64,000 bases of DNA, taken from the NCBI GenBank assembly GCA_003614675.1, contig ML002222.1, forward strand, positions 1-64,000. Reading direction: 5' to 3'. Within the stretch, counting starts at the first letter, position 1. Each line of letters starts with the position of its first letter. Source of the DNA: Dimargaris cristalligena. Its lineage: Eukaryota. The position numbers and the translations under genes were made by a program. Under the pieces are notes generated by a model. It was not told the DNA's origin. It did no database searches and saw only the letters and a list, made by a program, of their open reading frames with translations. Shown piece by piece: positions 31,503 to 49,433 of the stretch.

Positions 31503-34157
31503 CTACATAAAGGGGGCGGCCGCCTTCCGGACTTTATCCTGCATCCGGTACTTCCGATCAATATGTGGCCGGACATCGTCGGTACCCAACAGGGATTCCA
31601 GGAACGAGTATACCGAATACAGTTCCGAGTCCCGCGGGTCGTGGTACCAGCTCACAATGGGAATCCCATTGGACAGTTGGTACCCAAATACCTGAGGGGA
31701 ATTATCAACAATCACCACTTGAGACAGGTCCCGTCCGAGCAGCGACAGGTCCTTTACGTAAATTTCTGACATTTCAATACACGAGTCTCGGAACAGCCGG
31801 TGCCGTATCAACTTCCGTTCGGGATCCAGGAGGTTAAGCAGGCGGTCGGCGTAGATCTTCTGCGACGCCGTAAATAGGACGACCTCGAAGTGTTTGGCTG
31901 CCCGTTCCAGGAATTCCTGGATTCCTGGGCGGAGGCGGCAGCGGACTTGGATAATGGTGGAGTCCAGTTCCACCGGGAACACCAGGTCCGAGTTGGGATC
32001 GGGATCGGTGGTACAATGTACTAATGTCTCGTCCAAATCCAGGACCAGGGTAATGGGCGGACTGGACCGGGTTTTACGGGGTAGGAGGAAGGGCCGACTT
32101 TTAAGCTCCACTGGGATGGGGGGCAGGGATGCGATAAATTGGTAGATATTCTGTTCCGTAATGCTGAAATCAATGACTCCCGATTCCATATCATTATCAT
32201 CGTCATCATCCTCGTCGTCGTCGTCGTCTTCATCGTCTCCTTCGGTTTCGAAACCATCCACTTCCATATTAGCATTGCCTTCGGTACCATGGGGCTGGGT
32301 GGCGATGGAAGCGGCAAATTGGCCGATGGGGTGCATGGACTGGTGGTTCAAATAGTGTTGTAGAGCGGCCATATTCCCAAGGTCAGGCACCCGGGCAAAG
32401 CCATCGGTCCCATCCGATGCCACCGGAGCGACCCCACTGGCATCCGACTGACCAAACATGTAGAAGTTGCCGTTGGTGAGGGATGATACATCCCCCCCCT
32501 GGCCATCAAGGATGGGGGGCTGGCTAAAATCAGCGGCTGCGGACTGGGTGATGGACCGGAAAAAACTGAGCATTGGCGAAAAGATGGTCTGTAGTGGCAA
32601 AAGGGTCGATGGGGCAATTGACGCAGCCTCGGTGGAATCCTGGGTCTGGGCAGCCATCCCTGTCGGGTTAGCCTCGGCCGACGGGGAGCCAACCTCTGCA
32701 GAACCATTTTCCTGGTGCGCCATGGGAGTGACGTGCCCGCCCAGCTGCACCGGGAAGGTGCTGTTGAAGTCACCCTGTCCGTAGTCGTAATACATGAAAG
32801 GGTGGTTCACATCCGGCATGGTGGTGGCGATTTCGTAGTTGGACAGTACGGTCCAGTCGGACAGTCCGGAGGGGGCAGTAGCCAGGTCAGATGCGAAGTC
32901 AGGTTGGGTCACCGCCTGTACCGGATTAGGAAAAGCCAAGGGGTTATTGGACGAGGTCAGGGATGCAGTGGCGTTGGCATTGGGCTTCATAGCCAGGGCA
33001 GTCAGCGACCGCTGTGGAGGGTCGGGTTTGGCAGGAGACATTAAACGGGACAATTCCTCGGAGGTACACTTGGTCACGTCGGTGGGAGCGGCAGTCGCGT
33101 CCTGGGTTGGCCGGTTCAGGGCCAGACTCCGAGCCAGCAAGGGGGTGGATGCTTTGGCTACCTTGGGGTCAGTAGCGTCATCCTCGGACTCCTCGGGCGC
33201 CGAGGAGGTTCCATCGGAAGTTTCGGAGGAGGGTGCAGGGGCAACAACACTGGTAAGTACCACTGCAGCTGCAGCACGCTTGGTCTTCTTTTTTCGCGCG
33301 GCCTTTAACGGGGGTGATCGGAGAAGGGTAGGGTTGGGGGCGGAAGTGATAAAACTAGGGGTGGCAAGCACGGGTCGGGCGGGGGTGGAAGAAGGCGGGG
33401 GCGTGACGAGTCCCGGGGAGGTGACAGCACGAACCATCCGAGGAGTAGATGTAGGGGCGGCAGTGAACCGAGTAGGCTCGATTGCCTTATTGCCATCCTC
33501 GAGTTTCCGGCGCTTGAATTCCGACGGGGGGTCTGAAGGAACCGTGGGAGCCGAATTAATGGCCCCCTCCTCTTTTTCCGCCGCAACTTCGGGATTGGTT
33601 GAAGTTGGTTGATTGCGGGCGGAAGAGCGCCGCTTAAGGCTAGGCCGGTCCTCGGCGGGACGCGGAGTAAGGGCGGATTTCTCCGCAGTGGACGCGGCAC
33701 GGCGCCGTTTGCGGGGGCTGAGGAGGGCAGGCGCTGTCGGTTCAGTAGAAGTTAGGTCGTCGTCGGTCTTGCGCTTGGTCCGGCGCGAAGCCGGGGGTTT
33801 GGTAGTGGTGGTGGCGGTAGTCTGGCGAGTAGCAGCCACATGAAGGGTGGTGGCTTTACGAGTAGTCCGATGGGAGCTGGTCGTGCTGGTAGTTTTAATG
33901 GCAGTCACCGTGGAAGTAATCGTGGTAGTGGTGGAGGAAGTGGCCAGCGTGGTTGATGGTCCCTTGCTGACCGAGCGAGGCCGCACGGAGTGGTCGGCCG
34001 GGGCCTTGCGGGACATGTGGGAAGCCTTTTTAATGAGCATATCTTCGGCAATATACGCACCAGTGGTGGTCTTGGCCATAGAGGCCAAGTGCAGACTCCG
34101 CGAGCGGGTCCGACGGGGACTGCAGGTGGACGTCATCGCAGGAGTCAACGACGGCAT
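31503..34157 (-). CDS. CTD small phosphatase (SCP/NIF/FCP1 family, CTDSPL2-like) with long disordered N-terminus
   Basis: C-terminal LVLDLDETLVH, RPGIQEFL, FTASQKIYAD, HRLFRDSC, YVKDLS, VDNSPQVFGYQLSNGIPI; start codon uncertain. Confidence 0.92.
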   Translation of the reverse strand: MPSLTPAMTSTCSPRRTRSRSLHLASMAKTTTGAYIAEDMLIKKASHMSRKAPADHSVRPRSVSKGPSTTLATSSTTTTITSTVTAIKTTSTTSSHRTTRKATTLHVAATRQTTATTTTKPPASRRTKRKTDDDLTSTEPTAPALLSPRKRRRAASTAEKSALTPRPAEDRPSLKRRSSARNQPTSTNPEVAAEKEEGAINSAPTVPSDPPSEFKRRKLEDGNKAIEPTRFTAAPTSTPRMVRAVTSPGLVTPPPSSTPARPVLATPSFITSAPNPTLLRSPPLKAARKKKTKRAAAAVVLTSVVAPAPSSETSDGTSSAPEESEDDATDPKVAKASTPLLARSLALNRPTQDATAAPTDVTKCTSEELSRLMSPAKPDPPQRSLTALAMKPNANATASLTSSNNPLAFPNPVQAVTQPDFASDLATAPSGLSDWTVLSNYEIATTMPDVNHPFMYYDYGQGDFNSTFPVQLGGHVTPMAHQENGSAEVGSPSAEANPTGMAAQTQDSTEAASIAPSTLLPLQTIFSPMLSFFRSITQSAAADFSQPPILDGQGGDVSSLTNGNFYMFGQSDASGVAPVASDGTDGFARVPDLGNMAALQHYLNHQSMHPIGQFAASIATQPHGTEGNANMEVDGFETEGDDEDDDDDEDDDDDNDMESGVIDFSITEQNIYQFIASLPPIPVELKSRPFLLPRKTRSSPPITLVLDLDETLVHCTTDPDPNSDLVFPVELDSTIIQVRCRLRPGIQEFLERAAKHFEVVLFTASQKIYADRLLNLLDPERKLIRHRLFRDSCIEMSEIYVKDLSLLGRDLSQVVIVDNSPQVFGYQLSNGIPIVSWYHDPRDSELYSVYSFLESLLGTDDVRPHIDRKYRMQDKVRKAAAPFM

Positions 34158-42654: not shown

Positions 42655-43337
42655 ATGGTCTTTCACTTGCTCCAACTCTTCCTACTTGTGCCATTATCAA
42701 TAGCCTGTGCCTTAATCCCCCCCCCTTGGCCATGACACATACACACACACACTTTCTAAGATGAAAATGCTAACATTGTTGGGCCGCGGTTTCCTGTTCA
42801 TAAAATGGTACAATAAAAGAGTATCCGCCGTAGTCCCCTTAAGCCGGTCATTTCGGTGTGGCACCGGGTTCCACTTGCGTACTTGCATGGGGGCCTTTCG
42901 TTCTCGGCAGGGCTTACACCGTGAATGCGAGTGTATTAGCGGTTGCGTATTCTTTAAGCTGACCACCAAGTTGTATAGATACTAGTATGTAGCGCTTCAG
43001 CGGCTTTGCAATTTTATTTTGTACAAATACATACAATATAATGGCTTGGTTTGGTTTATGTTTCTATGCAAACATTATGTCTATAGCCTGCAAAAAAAAC
43101 AGCGACCGGGTGAAAGAGGGGGCTGTGGTGGACGGGTGGGGGGTCCGATACTAGGAGCGAGCGTCAGTTGTCCCGAATTTTGGGGCCTGCTGCCATGTAC
43201 TATTTTTTCCCTAACTACGTGTACAGCTCTTTTGTCCTATTTTGGGAATTATACGCCAATTTTGGCTCAATTGGCCACGGCTCCTACTGCAAATGTGCAC
43301 GAACCCCCCCAAAAGAGGGACAGTGCGTGTATTGGTT

Positions 43338-43643
43338 AGTGGTGTCGCCTAAAGTGAGAATAGCCGTAGTTGGGACATTGGCTGTACTATACTAGTCCAG
43401 GTGGCTCTAGGTACCCCAAGCGAATGGACAATTAGAGAGTGGTGTCGCCTAAAGTGAGAATAACCGTAGTTGGGACATTGGCTGTACTATACTAGTCCAG
43501 GTGGCTCTAGGTACCCCAAGCGAATGGACAATTAGAGAGTGGTGTCGCCTAAAGTGAGAATAGCCGTAGTTGGGACATTGGCTGTACTATACTAGTCCAG
43601 GTGGCTCTAGGTACCCCAAGCGAATGGACAATTAGAGAGTGGT
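43338..43643. repeat. Tandem repeat, 3 x 100 bp
   Basis: GGTGTCGCCTAAAGTGAGAA... starts at 43341, 43441 and 43541; one G/A difference in copy 2. Confidence 0.95.
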
Positions 43644-44630: not shown

Positions 44631-44638
44631 TATAAATA
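44631..44638 (+). promoter_or_regulatory. TATA box of secreted peptide gene A
   Basis: TATAAATA ~140 bp upstream of ATG 44779; the same motif occurs upstream of paralog C. Confidence 0.6.
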
Positions 44639-44778: not shown

Positions 44779-45141
44779 ATGAAGCTCCTGGCCGCCCTTG
44801 CCCTTGTCCTGGCCACCATCGGCACCCTGAACGTGGCTCACGCTAACCCTGCCACCACTGAGGACCAGGCCGGCCACCAAACTCATCTGCAGAAGCGCTT
44901 CTTCCGCTCCAATGCGGCCAGATTGGGTGGTATGGTTGCCGGCGGCGTCGTGGGCTCAGTGGTTGGCCCCGTCGGTACTGTTGTCGGTGTGGGCGCTGGC
45001 CTGTATGCCACCAACAAGGCTATCAAGCATCGCCGTGAGAAGAAACAACGCAAAAAAGATGAAAAGATCGCAAAGAAGGCCGCCGAAAAGACCGCGAAGG
45101 AGGCCGAGAAGGCCGCGAAGAAGGCTGCCGAAAAAAAGTAA
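44779..45141 (+). CDS. Secreted prepropeptide A: signal + pro-region (LQKR) + glycine zipper + Lys/Ala/Glu-rich cationic tail
   Basis: MKLLAALALVLATIGTLNVAHA | NPATTEDQAGHQTHLQKR | FFRSNAARLGGMVAGGVVGSVVGPVGTVVGVGAGLYATNKAIKHRREKKQRKK...; biased codons, CACCATG start context. Confidence 0.88.
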   Translation: MKLLAALALVLATIGTLNVAHANPATTEDQAGHQTHLQKRFFRSNAARLGGMVAGGVVGSVVGPVGTVVGVGAGLYATNKAIKHRREKKQRKKDEKIAKKAAEKTAKEAEKAAKKAAEKK

Positions 45142-46827
45142 AATCCCGGTCCGGTATACCCCATAAATCAAGCTACCTACCAAATTATGCCATGGTTTCG
45201 TCCAATTGGCTATATTATTTCTTGATGCCTAGTAGTGCCATTCTATATTCCATGACATGCCTTTCTTTTGTAAAATTTTCGACTATGGATACTATTAGTG
45301 TTCCGCTCTTTTGAGCAATTCACCTCAGCACGAAGTTCAGCCCTGTATATTCCCCGATTTTCAGTTAGATTAAATAAAAATTGCGGCAGTTATTGTCGCT
45401 TTCGAAATCATTAAATATACGCCTAGCGTGTACCAATTTTATTTTGCTTGTTGAGTATAGCCAGCCTTTGATGTAGTGAACCTGGCTTGCTAAAATATAA
45501 CATATCCCTCGGAGCAAACTATCAGTACGAAGGTAGCATTGGTATAGGATGAACACAATGTGGCTGTCAGCGAATCCATTGGAGTTGTATTGTGTCGTTT
45601 GTGATTGCTGTCATATGCCCCATCCATAAGTCCGTAGCCGTATAGTCCAGAAACATAGTCAGTTCTGGCGATAATGGCCCATATTTACTGCAATTGATCG
45701 GATTTCTTGGTGGGTGCTCTTATATGTACGGTACTATTATATTCTGCACTGCTCAGCTACTCGAGGGCAGTACCAGAATCAGCTGAATAGATGCTAATAG
45801 GCATGGGATCTCCCTCTTTCAACTGTAGTTTGTTGACAATGGGGGAGAAGTGGTGCCACACGCACACATACATATATATATCTATATATTACTGCTAAGG
45901 CGCAAATTACTAACAAGATGTGGGTGAAGCAATGCAGGGATGTAGGCCAGTGGTTCCAAGAGGTAGTGTAACAGGAAATTATTAGGGACCCTGGATAACC
46001 AAACAGGGGTTGTTCGCATCACTTCAGAGACTGCCAATAATCACTAGGTAGCCCATCTAGCAATTGCCCCATCGGGAATCACATATCTACCAACATACCC
46101 AGGACTCGGGATTTATTAGTGGGGTTATGGCATGTGTCAGTATTAAACTAGAATGCCTTATTTCATGAAAAATTATGGACACTCATTGTCCCCCATCCTT
46201 TCTCACCCCCATAATATACTGTGTTTTGACTCCTTGATTACCAAAGGTCTTCTGCCCCTCTCAAATTAGTATTATTTTCAGTACTATTGTATATACATAG
46301 GTCCAACTACATCACATACCTTTATCGATATTCCTTCTCACTACCGCATATGGGCCCCAGCCGTATTTTCCGATGCTCTTGAGCACATCCAACACTTGTC
46401 GTCACTTTTGTACTCGACTCACAGCTTCCTCGTGGTCACCTACTAGTTGCTGGGTTGATATAGCTGTGACAGTGCCAAGCTTTTACTAAATGGCCCATTA
46501 TTTCTGAGCTACATCAGCCAGCTACTCTACAGCAAGTGCAACTGTAATTTACTGAACAATATTTATGCAACCACCTATTTAACGATTCTACCTCAAGTTT
46601 ACTTTTTAAACATAATTTGTTTGTAATTACTTCAATCATCCCTTATTATATATTTGCAAGTCCGCAACCTACATATAAGAGTCAATGGTTCACTTTTATG
46701 GAGCGACCTAGTTTTGGAATGGTGGACCAAGGCAAACTTTTCTAATCTTTTCATTTCCCCACTCAATAATTGATGGTCATACTGGATTTCCTTATGCCAA
46801 CCTGTTGGCAAGCCCCTATTTACATAT

Positions 46828-46963
46828 GGGTGAAATTCGGCCCAGCTATATAAGGGTTTACATTATACGTGTATGGGAAAATATATGGGAAATGTATTGT
46901 TAACTAGTAATATTGGCTGAATCTAATGGATTTTTCGTTATACAGCTTGGATGAACTTCTCCC
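46828..46963. mobile_element. MITE copy 4 (136 bp)
   Basis: GGGTGAAATTCGGCCCAGCTATATAA...TTATACAGCTTGGATGAACTTCTCCC; ATAT flanks. Confidence 0.82.
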
Positions 46964-48000
46964 ATATTAACTTCTCACTCAATAGGATCAATTCTAGAAT
47001 AGATCCTGGGTGGGTGGTGGCCATCCTAACTACATGCTCCTTTACCTCGTAAGTACAGCACCGACAATAGACCTGGTATTTTATCTTGAATATAAAATAC
47101 ATGCTACATTTTTTGTTGTATGGCTATCTGCCTAGATTCTAGAATATCCACTGCACCACTTTTATAGAGCCATTTTCAAGAGCCCTAGGTTACTAGGGTA
47201 ACCACTTCCCCTTATGCTATACTATGTTTGGTGATTTTTCCTTAGATCACCGATTTTACCCACATTGTGTCAACACCTAAAGTATAGCAGTCGGTTCCAC
47301 AAGGTAGCCTCATTATACAAAATTTCTAATGGTTAATATTTTTCGACTAAGGGCAAAATAAGCTATATTCAATCTTGTGGGTATTATTATTTACCTGCTG
47401 GTAGGTCACTGGGAATCTAATGCTTGGGCCATTCACGCTACACCCTGGCATACCCTTTATGAACTTTTCCTCCTGGTTATATATCTAGTTTTGTGCTTTC
47501 ATAGCTAACAAAAGAGAAAACAGATTAAACTGCTTATGCCTGGGCTAACATTTACTCTATTGTCAATGATATGATCTAACAATTGACCTATGTATTCGAA
47601 TGCTCATGTAAAAGGTGTCCCATTTGGACCCATTCTGGGACATCACAATTCTCGAATAGAATATCTAATGTACTAGTTTAGAAATCCAGCCCAAATTTTA
47701 TAGTGTTTTAGGTATACAAATCAAATAATACATCTTCCGACATTGTACTGCGAAGCATGAACCATAGATAATAACTAGCCAGGAGGAGCGATTATTTAAC
47801 CAAGGCGGCCTTATATATATGTATATATAAATATGTATGAAATCAACCAATCTAATATTTACAAAGAGTGCCAACAGGGAAACGGGGGTATTGCTGCTAA
47901 CTGAAGACGACAACGGGGCTATTCGGGAATAAATAGTGGCGATTGTTAACCAAGCGAAGTGAATGTACCGTACAGTGATCCCACCTCTGTCGGCCAAGCC

Positions 48001-48254
48001 TTAATAATAACGGTGTTTGAACTTGCTAATCGTAGGGAGACGACTGGGTTTGAAGGCATCACCCCGGCCGCCGAAGTTTAAATATTTAAAGGGATTTAAA
48101 GAAAACGGACGGGGTCTGGGCGAGCGCTTCTGCAGATGGGGTTGCTGGCCGGCTCGGTCTTCGGTGGTGGTAGGGCTAGCGTGGACCATGGTCACGGTGC
48201 CGAGGGTGGCCAGGACGAGGGTGAGAGGGCTTGGGAGGAGAATGGTAGCTTCAT
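48001..48254 (-). pseudogene. Secreted prepropeptide B, frameshifted in the signal peptide
   Basis: CACCATGAAG at 48254 is out of frame with LTLVLATLGTVTMVHASPTTTEDRAGQQPHLQKR|SPRPRPFSLNPFKYLNFGGRGDAFKPSRLPTISKFKHRYY*; homologous to A and C. Confidence 0.7.
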
Positions 48255-49297
48255 GGTGGGGCGGACGAGGAAGGTCACGGGAAGGGAGGACGAGTAACGT
48301 ACGGGCTATTCGGCCAGTTAGGGTATATAATACAAGTTTCAAAGAACCATAAAGCTACGGCGAATGGTGGGATAAAGCGGGAAGGTAGGGACGGCTTGGG
48401 TCAGAGAGGGGGGCAAAATGAGGGATATTTAAAGGGAAAAGGGACGCCATATTAGATGAATCTGGGCAACGAAAGAGGGTCACATGGCCATCTTTCTGGT
48501 CCAATGCTCGCTTCTTCCGCCCAACCTATAGACTCCCACACACCCTTTGTTCAAACAGATAGTTTACCTGCCACCCATTCCAAGGGTTATAGAGTCTTCG
48601 AAACTATCCAACCTATGGTAAACAATGTGGTCTTTAGAGTCGGGATATAAAGCCTTTTCGGATACCAAAGGTTCCTTGTATTCATGAAGTCCTTTCGAAC
48701 ATTCGATTAACACGAGAATGATTTGGTATCATTTCAAGGGAGTCGGGATGGTAAATCCTTAGCAAAGACCCTGCGCTTTAAAATGCGGGTATCGAGGCCA
48801 TGGTCTGCTTTGGGAAGGACCTGACATGACAAAGAATGCGAGGTTCCTCGGCCCTCGTGTCTCCCATCCGTACGCCGGTTCAAAGAGAGAAAATGGAAGA
48901 ATTTTTAAAAAAAAGTCGTAGAGGAAGGGGGGGGATTGGGACTCTTACCCCGTAGAACAAAGGGGGGAGGGAGTTGTCCGATTTGTTCGTTTACCAAGGA
49001 GTGTCCAATTGGGCAAGTAATTATTTATGGTTGTATCCTCTCTTCCCCACTTGCTTTTGTGTATCCATTATTTCAACGGACTAAATGTGAGAAAAACTAG
49101 GTCTGTAGGAGATACTCCGATACAGGGCAATGCCCCCCCTCCCGCACTCTTAAAAATCCTTTTTGAATGAAGTATAGAGTCACATTTCAAGTCTATCCTG
49201 GTCGCCCATACTCGTTGTCGGCGGATGCTCTAGGCTATAACCGCGTTGGACCGCCTTTAAACCGACTTTCATACCACTGTAGATCTTCTATTTATAT

Positions 49298-49433
49298 GGA
49301 TGAAATTCAAACCAGCTGTATAAGGTTTTACATAATACGTGTATGGGCGAATATATGTGAGAAAAGCTTTTAACCAGTAATATTGGCCTCACCCAATGGA
49401 TTTTTCATTATACAGCCTGAATGAACATCTCCC
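49298..49433. mobile_element. MITE copy 5 (136 bp)
   Basis: GGATGAAATTCAAACCAGCTGTATAA...TTATACAGCCTGAATGAACATCTCCC; ATAT flanks. Confidence 0.82.

Follow-up and report, generated by a model that had tools for sequence, protein, structure and literature searches.

The small genes A and C of Dimargaris cristalligena raise the question of what a glycine zipper would be doing behind a secretory signal peptide. D. cristalligena is a haustorial mycoparasite of the Zoopagomycota, with Mucorales as hosts. An initial annotation of the window, by which we mean the whole 64,000-nucleotide stretch of contig ML002222.1 that was analysed, had described two bacteriocin-like mature peptides with GxxxG repeats around a central GP turn, followed by a charged tail, and had proposed that they form helical hairpins that permeabilise membranes, possibly as a two-peptide pair. 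The repeats are present as quoted, five overlapping GxxxG in each of A and C, together with a central proline and a K/R-rich tail. The glycine zipper is genuine and conserved, it has basic flanks, and it lies behind a signal peptide, in A also behind a Kex2-type pro-piece. The combination of a conserved zipper with basic flanks would fit a membrane-inserting, self-associating module.

Genes A and C and the out-of-frame copy B

The features of A, C and a third related copy, B, are collected in Table 1. The stretch described in the initial annotation starts at 44899, which is the first codon past the LQKR of A, and its last position, 45141, is the end of the stop codon. The three copies have in common a TATA box (TATAAATA in A and C, TTTAAATA in B), 5'UTR blocks, the context of the ATG and the signal peptide, of which the hydrophobic core in A, LLAALALVLATIG, is kept across the family. 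The first 12 or so residues of the A tail (NK.IK.(Y)R..K) are also conserved in the family, and the remainder is variable in length. Residues 39-54 of C (50694-50741) form a tandem octapeptide, SKPPATSQ / SKPPATNQ, which A and B do not have.

Table 1. Positions of the features of copies A, B and C in the window
Feature	Position	Strand	Remarks
TATA box TATAAATA upstream of A	44631..44638	+	part of a promoter/5'UTR block that aligns with its counterparts in B and C
ORF A	44779-45141	+	120 aa, intact ATG to stop
A signal peptide, residues 1-22	44779..44844	+	ends AHA before N; putative cleavage site by the small-x-small rule
A pro-piece, residues 23-40	44845..44898	+	terminates in Kex2-type LQKR
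A LQKR site, residues 37-40	44887-44898	+	canonical Kex2-type
A glycine zipper, L49-A77	44923..45009	+	G51-55-59-63, P64 (44968-44970), G66-70-74
A polycationic tail, residues 78-120 and stop	45010..45141	+	19 K/R, 7 D/E, net +12
Copy B	48001..48254	-	ATG at 48254 one base out of frame with the conserved signal/pro/LQKR frame
TTTAAATA box of B	48426..48433	-	homologous to the TATA boxes of A and C
TATA box TATAAATA upstream of C	50398..50405	+	homologous to the boxes of A and B
ORF C	50580-50972	+	130 aa, intact ATG to stop
C signal peptide, residues 1-24	50580..50651	+	ends VHA before G; putative cleavage site
C pro-like region, residues 25-68	50652..50783	+	Pro-rich; no KR at the family position, RR at 67-68
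C glycine zipper, A74-A99	50799..50876	+	continuous ladder G76-80-84-88-92-96, P85
C basic tail, residues 100-130 and stop	50877..50972	+	net +8

At the nucleotide level, copy B can be matched to C along 305 nt (77%) and to A along 99 nt (84%). It keeps the promoter, the signal peptide and the LQKR of the family, and these are followed by a 40-residue Pro/Arg-rich basic peptide without a zipper. The spacing from the ATG to GTCCTGGCC is 38 nt in B, as compared to 27 in A and 33 in C, so that the ATG of B does not share the reading frame of the signal, pro-piece and LQKR that follow it. A contig from a different study's run (X5) aligns to the window without gaps at 46941-49318, the one substitution being at 47216, and the state of the B frame is thus not an assembly slip peculiar to the ML002222.1 record. 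B is probably a pseudogene; alternatively, if translation began at another start, the shared pre-pro scaffold would carry a mature peptide of another kind. The protein P0001, 75% identical to A, is a paralog of A and not an allele; paralogous contigs with 14-26 differences occur alongside exact copies within the same runs. The contigs of the four runs compared leave 49776-51100, and with it C, uncovered.

The codon usage of A is coding-like, with a GC3 of 0.69 and a mean ln RSCU of 0.189, inside the range of 0.137-0.346 spanned by six housekeeping genes of the window, and the antisense ORF has -0.179. The corresponding value for C is -0.044, as compared to -0.358 for its antisense ORF, and C is coding-like only weakly. 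The ESM Atlas contains A as a predicted protein, letter for letter. A gene model from another assembly, P0002, shows a single difference to the first 112 residues of C, I90T, within the zipper; instead of the stop of C it uses a 2135-nt GT..AG intron (50916-53050). An ORF of about 89 residues at 53054-53323 (+) has its own ATG at 53054 and a signal-like N-terminus, MHQQPQQQPRWRLLTWGLALLACVQLAQS, and it is 100% identical to residues 112-202 of P0002. This ORF is probably a separate gene for a small secreted protein, and P0002 is probably a chimera of C and the downstream ORF. The unspliced tail of C can still be aligned with the basic tails of the family. Judging from the reading frames, the coding-like composition, the common promoter and pre-pro region and the existence of a family, A and C are most probably real genes.

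The window also contains intron-bearing housekeeping genes (acyl-CoA ligase, SNF2 helicase, ribosomal proteins, P-type ATPase), and named proteins that are nearly identical to its products assign it to D. cristalligena. Long ORFs are absent from about 41.1 to 53.0 kb, where the three small related ORFs and repeats make up the content. A, B and C are set in a gene-poor stretch of roughly 12 kb with repeats and one pseudogenised copy. Such a setting, combined with a conserved pre-pro part and a divergent mature part, would be typical of peptides used in attack or defence. One of the repeats is an element of about 145 bp, present in two copies (46824-46968 and 49294-49438) in direct orientation and 81% alike, which bracket a 2.5-kb segment with B. 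The summed contig depth at both copies reaches 10^5, as compared to about 200 in the flanks, and the element must therefore be extremely abundant in the genome. Upstream of A, at 43331-43643, a unit of about 100 nt is found in three tandem copies that are 96-97% identical.

The family in Dimargaris cristalligena and its Kex2-type sites

A profile of A, P0001 and C, searched against 1.84 billion representative sequences at E<=0.001, gave 26 proteins. The pre-pro region is present in five of them (P0001, P0002, P0003, P0004 and P0022), all five named D. cristalligena, and 21 of the 26 matches cover the zipper and the tail only. The zipper-peptide family thus appears, among the sequences searched, to be restricted to D. 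cristalligena, where it has at least six loci. The members sit on different contigs, and the closest paralog of A, P0001, as well as three more are found outside the contig of A and C. For three loci both annotated assemblies have a copy, and each of these pairs differs by a single amino acid. A and C themselves are related at a BLASTP E value of 1e-8 (33% identity over 114 columns), and their genes are 5.8 kb apart.

The family has a signal peptide that ends in (A/V)HA, a pro-piece that ends in (P)HLQKR, and then [FWY]FRS, followed by the zipper G..VG..V.P..GTV.G...G, the motif K.I(K/E).YR and a basic tail of 17 to 43 residues. The zipper of P0022 is shortened. Between P0001 and A, 32 of 38 residues are identical in the signal peptide and pro-piece, 30 of 37 in the N-flank and zipper, and 15 of 27 in the tail, and the single altered ladder glycine is a Gly-to-Ala change.

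It could be argued that A and C are decaying or untranslated relics of a duplicated family, in which the zipper no longer serves a function. The shifted frame of B, the weak codon adaptation of C and the failure of the exact A and C proteins to turn up in a search of a 5.8-billion-protein collection would all agree with decay. However, neither gene is interrupted between ATG and stop, the promoter elements are conserved, and the codon usage of A is that of a housekeeping gene. The presence of the exact A in the ESM Atlas, the single difference to P0002 in 112 residues of C, and the zipper glycines kept between A and P0001 also speak against relics. We consider this reading improbable as a whole, more clearly so for A than for C.

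The Kex2 motif is described in the accessible part of PMC8528282 as having an invariant Arg at P1, a basic residue at P2 and preferably Leu at P4. LxxR is found directly before the zipper in A, P0001 and P0022, and B has LxxR at the aligned site. P0003 and P0027 have LQKH at the site, without the invariant P1 Arg, and C has K-E at the aligned position, its sole basic pair being the RR at 67-68, so cleavage is not universal in the family. The arrangement of Kex2-processed pro-domain (K2PP) secreted proteins, in which the signal peptide precedes an N-terminal pro-piece with KR/RR or LxxR at its end, was observed in A, P0001, B, P0022 and P0004; P0003 falls outside it, and C has nothing but its RR. 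The "mature peptides" of the initial annotation are best regarded as putative in both genes; A has a canonical LQKR, and C has no such site.

P0004, a D. cristalligena paralog outside the window, has four 18-residue pro-units ending in LRRR, LKRR, LRMR and LKKR. Its pro-region has the layout of a Kex2-processed repeat protein ahead of a single zipper peptide. The Dimargaris proteins resemble K2PP effectors and Kex2-processed repeat proteins, as far as these are described in the accessible part of PMC8528282, in their signal peptide and short disordered pro-piece ending in LxxR/KR. The known K2PP effectors, in contrast, are folded, mostly cysteine-rich and from plant pathogens, whereas the Dimargaris ones consist of a cysteine-free zipper and tail and belong to a mycoparasite of an early-diverging lineage.

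One source automatically names P0004 "Glycine zipper domain-containing protein" and P0027 "Transmembrane protein". The zipper motif of the family has thus been flagged by automatic naming, without a dedicated study in the literature that was searched. No paper joining "glycine zipper" and "Kex2" was found in the literature search, the accessible parts of the papers on zipper antimicrobials and on D. cristalligena do not treat a fungal zipper peptide family, and the accessible part of PMC9866270 does not mention one.

The glycine zipper and its likeness to known families

The GxxxG motifs start at residues 51, 55, 59, 66 and 70 in A, forming two ladders that flank P64, and at residues 76, 80, 84, 88 and 92 in C, forming one ladder of six glycines, G76 to G96, through G84-P85. 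A glycine zipper is defined (Kim et al. 2005, as quoted in the accessible part of PMC4470416) as (G,A,S)xxxGxxxG or GxxxGxxx(G,S,T) in a hydrophobic stretch, and this transmembrane motif is found in both A and C. A six-frame scan of the 64-kb window gave five stop-free 30-residue stretches with at least five GxxxG, A and C included, and the remaining three, at 33195, 43109 and 60817, are non-hydrophobic and rich in Gly and Arg. A zipper-like off-frame string near 43.1 kb was considered as a fourth copy and rejected (tblastn E 5.1, no blastn match).

G55, G59, P64, G66 and G70 are at least 90% conserved in 21 aligned sequences of the family and its relatives. G63 of the proposed GP turn is variable, being Leu in P0003 and P0004, and the ladder of C is unbroken through G84-P85. 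Two AlphaFold2 runs of A gave a single continuous helix over residues 35-119 with the basic tail on one side. The hairpin was absent from both models, at a confidence in the zipper that is too low for a decision. The mean pLDDT was 61.7 with a 3-row alignment and 71.9 with a 21-row alignment; confidence is high in the tail (74-97, and 83-97 in the 21-row run) and low in the zipper (51-66). An oligomer model of four copies of A41-100, run without an alignment and without controls, scored 0.01 as compared to a mark of 0.32. A bacterial Gly-zipper_YMGG cluster was found as a structural neighbour in the ESM Atlas at TM 0.52, which is under the bar of the tool and makes it a lead only, and the feature search of the same resource gave no usable match for A or C. 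A profile search of the PDB gave no credible solved relative, the best match, at E 0.02, being to a Gly-rich part of a phage tape-measure protein.

That A and C belong to the bacteriocins or to a known Gly-zipper family, which had been put forward for a HMMER check, is not supported by the profile searches, as none of the families was reached at threshold. A and C do not match the Pfam family Bacteriocin_IIc (PF10439) even at E<=10, and with 17.5 bits for P0003 and 16.3 bits for P0004 the paralogs stay below the gathering cut-off of 27.1. At E<=10 they do not match Gly-zipper_Omp (PF13488, cut-off 25 bits), Gly-zipper_YMGG (PF13441, 28.9), Rick_17kDa_Anti (PF05433, 24.2) or Gly-zipper_OmpA (PF13436, for which no cut-off is given) either. 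The sole match of the family to these is P0004 on PF13488, 15.5 bits and thus under the cut-off. The leader is also eukaryotic, and not of the double-glycine type.

There are nevertheless likenesses to bacterial systems. Class IIb bacteriocins such as lactococcin G are, like A and C, small peptides with GxxxG helix-packing motifs. The alpha peptide of lactococcin G has a strikingly cationic C-terminal end, proposed in the accessible part of PMC2850506 to be pulled through the membrane by the membrane potential. The class IIb peptides differ in being bacterial, with a double-glycine leader, export by an ABC transporter, genes in operon pairs and an immunity protein, whereas the Dimargaris proteins have a eukaryotic signal peptide ending in AHA/VHA, a Kex2-type site, dispersed paralogs and separate TATA promoters. 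CdzC and CdzD are small proteins in which an extended GxxxGxxxG with small hydrophobic residues is needed for killing (PMC5380434, accessible part), and Tse4, TelE and the C-terminus of EsxX are glycine-zipper membrane toxins of T6SS/T7SS whose zipper, in the partial sources at hand, is needed for killing or depolarisation. Compared by their descriptions in these sources, the Cdz, Tse4, TelE and EsxX proteins differ from the Dimargaris family in that they are bacterial, use type I, VI or VII secretion and are described without a long polycationic tail.

The bacterial pairs bear on the proposal that A and C are complementary halves of a two-peptide toxin, inactive singly and forming a hetero-helix bundle through their GxxxG faces. 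The two zippers are similar in length and lie in the same 6-kb neighbourhood, and the class IIb and CdzC/CdzD pairs, which are jointly required according to the accessible parts of PMC2850506 and PMC5380434, could serve as analogies. However, class IIb pairs are encoded by adjacent genes in one operon and made in equal amounts (PMC2850506, accessible part), whereas A and C are paralogs with their own TATA promoters, 5.8 kb apart with the frameshifted B between them, and P0001 and three further members are on other contigs. There is no sign of co-regulation or complementarity between A and C, and we find such a pair very improbable.

Another likeness was found outside the family. From the profile matches, 11 sequences with a C-terminal module of the type "basic run - zipper - basic run" were picked by eye, leaving out P0006-P0009, P0013, P0017, P0018 and P0020-P0023. 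The named members are from the diatoms Epithemia clementina, Entomoneis paludosa and Fragilariopsis cylindrus, and none of the 11 has a signal peptide. Aligned by hhalign, the Dimargaris profile and this diatom-type set match at 97.8% (E 1.1e-12, 64 columns), and the aligned columns include GP.G.VVG, YATNK and the tail K..ERK.QRK. Reversed sequences gave 39.9% and 24.2% and ten column shuffles at most 0.9%, which shows that the likeness depends on the order of the residues and not merely on composition. It may reflect either common descent or convergence of a short module. Like the Dimargaris proteins, the diatom modules have a basic flank, G..VGG.VG...(L/G)P.G.VVG...G, (Y)ATNK and K..E(R/K)K.QRK. 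Unlike them, they have no signal peptide or pro-piece and form the end of long low-complexity proteins, followed by ...H-S-G-A-F-V, whereas in Dimargaris the module comes straight after the secretory pre-pro region.

The diatom proteins P0005, P0010-P0012, P0014-P0016, P0019, P0024-P0026 and P0033 form a coherent and apparently undescribed family of their own, with a long low-complexity N-terminus, HP..KMKKRRKR, a glycine zipper, K..ERKKQRK and the ...HSGAFV end, marginal to the C19orf12-like proteins. Of the 11-sequence set, eight matched the C19orf12-like family PF20721 below threshold and one, P0015, at 30.2 bits as compared to the cut-off of 30. A, C, P0003, P0004 and P0022 gave no match to PF20721 at all, and any C19orf12-like link of the Dimargaris family would run through the diatom-type set, which is itself only marginal to PF20721.

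Secreted peptides or resident membrane proteins

The hydrophobicity of the zippers can be read in two ways. Averaged over 19 residues, the Kyte-Doolittle value is 1.79 in A and 1.58 in C, which reaches the classical transmembrane range. The translocon-scale sums of the best 19-23-residue windows are +4.6 to +6.2 kcal/mol (position-independent, with the scale values of Hessa et al. 2005), by which a stable stop-transfer anchor is disfavoured. The arms on either side of the conserved proline are about 12-14 residues each, and together with the basic flanks they would fit a kinked helix or a short hairpin, which may occupy one leaflet or span the membrane by oligomerisation. A mitochondrial presequence, which would be an amphipathic basic helix, was rejected on account of the hydrophobic signal at the N-terminus, and so was a GPI anchor, the C-terminus being charged.

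We consider that there is about an even chance that A and C are secreted, Kex2-processed, membrane-active cationic peptides, where secretion, cleavage, insertion, oligomerisation and target are all predicted. The signal peptide would bring the precursor into the ER, and a Kex2-type protease would cut A after LQKR and release an 80-residue product. This product would begin with FFRSNAAR as a short basic N-flank, followed by a Gly/Val-rich zipper of 29 residues with a kink at the proline, a Tyr/Lys/Arg motif at the interface and a long tail that is helical and polycationic. With so much glycine, the zipper would not be retained efficiently by the translocon, and the peptide would exit the cell. 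It is conceivable that the basic flanks then bind to anionic membranes, either those of the Mucorales host or those of microbial competitors, and that the zipper inserts, packs via its glycine faces and perturbs or permeabilises the membrane. The bacterial GxxxG peptides, as known from the accessible parts of PMC2850506 and PMC5380434, may be taken as working precedents, by analogy, for the membrane action. The preference for secreted peptides comes from the pre-pro design, the repeated LxxR units, the weak hydrophobicity on the translocon scale, and the species-restricted birth-and-death pattern in a repeat-rich stretch. As judged from the sequences, the best reading of the family is a species-restricted set of small secretory pre-pro-peptides under birth-and-death.

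The main alternative, possible but less likely, is that A and C are resident small membrane proteins, which do not attack other cells, with the zipper as an anchor and a tail that is cytosolic or lipid-binding. They would then have a single kinked type I span, or a monotopic hairpin as has been proposed for C19orf12-like proteins, and would regulate or organise some membrane process. The positive charge is concentrated C-terminal of the hydrophobic stretch, as would be expected for such an anchor, and yeast Pmp1/Pmp2 are small single-span proteolipids with a basic cytosolic tail. The predicted single helix over residues 35-119 would also fit a type I anchor, the Kyte-Doolittle values of 1.6-1.8 and the automatic name of P0027 point in the same direction, and P0003 has no cleavable Arg and C no KR. 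It can be added that the zipper must be an intracellular anchor in the diatom-type relatives, which match the family at 97.8% in hhalign and have no signal peptide. These relatives border on PF20721, and C19orf12 is a membrane-associated glycine-zipper protein according to the accessible part of PMC4470416; the Dimargaris members themselves, however, have no PF20721 match. A translocon sum of about +5 to +6 kcal/mol would also make a poor stop-transfer sequence, and arms of 12-14 residues are too short for a true two-span hairpin. The four LxxR-ended pro-units of P0004 would be awkward as the stub of an ectodomain, and a species-restricted family with fast turnover and a pseudogene, in a repeat-rich stretch, is atypical of housekeeping membrane proteins.

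To our knowledge, glycine-zipper killing peptides have so far been a bacterial theme, represented by class IIb bacteriocins, Cdz and the T6SS/T7SS membrane toxins. The C19orf12 zipper is the one mutated in MPAN, a human disease. Going one step further than secreted peptides, a speculative and rather unlikely scenario is that A and C are the first eukaryotic glycine-zipper toxins. An ancient intracellular, reversibly inserting module of the C19orf12 kind, retained in diatom proteins as an anchor at the C-terminus, would have acquired a signal peptide and a Kex2 pro-piece in front of it and grown into a fast-evolving secreted arsenal that permeabilises the membranes of the Mucorales host or of competitors, with the polycationic tail as a targeting or voltage-driven element.

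Zipper modules themselves are known, and what appears to be new here is a glycine-zipper membrane module in a eukaryotic secretory context. Should A and C prove to be resident in the membranes of the fungus, what is left is a lineage-specific family of small proteins. The likeness to the diatom C19orf12-like modules offers in any case a minimal zipper of about 45 residues, which could be used to distinguish between a hairpin, a single span and reversible insertion. If they are eukaryotic zipper toxins, the peptides would be short, cysteine-free and chemically synthesisable antifungal or antibacterial leads, and the zipper mechanism would be extended, through a haustorial mycoparasite, to warfare of eukaryote against eukaryote.
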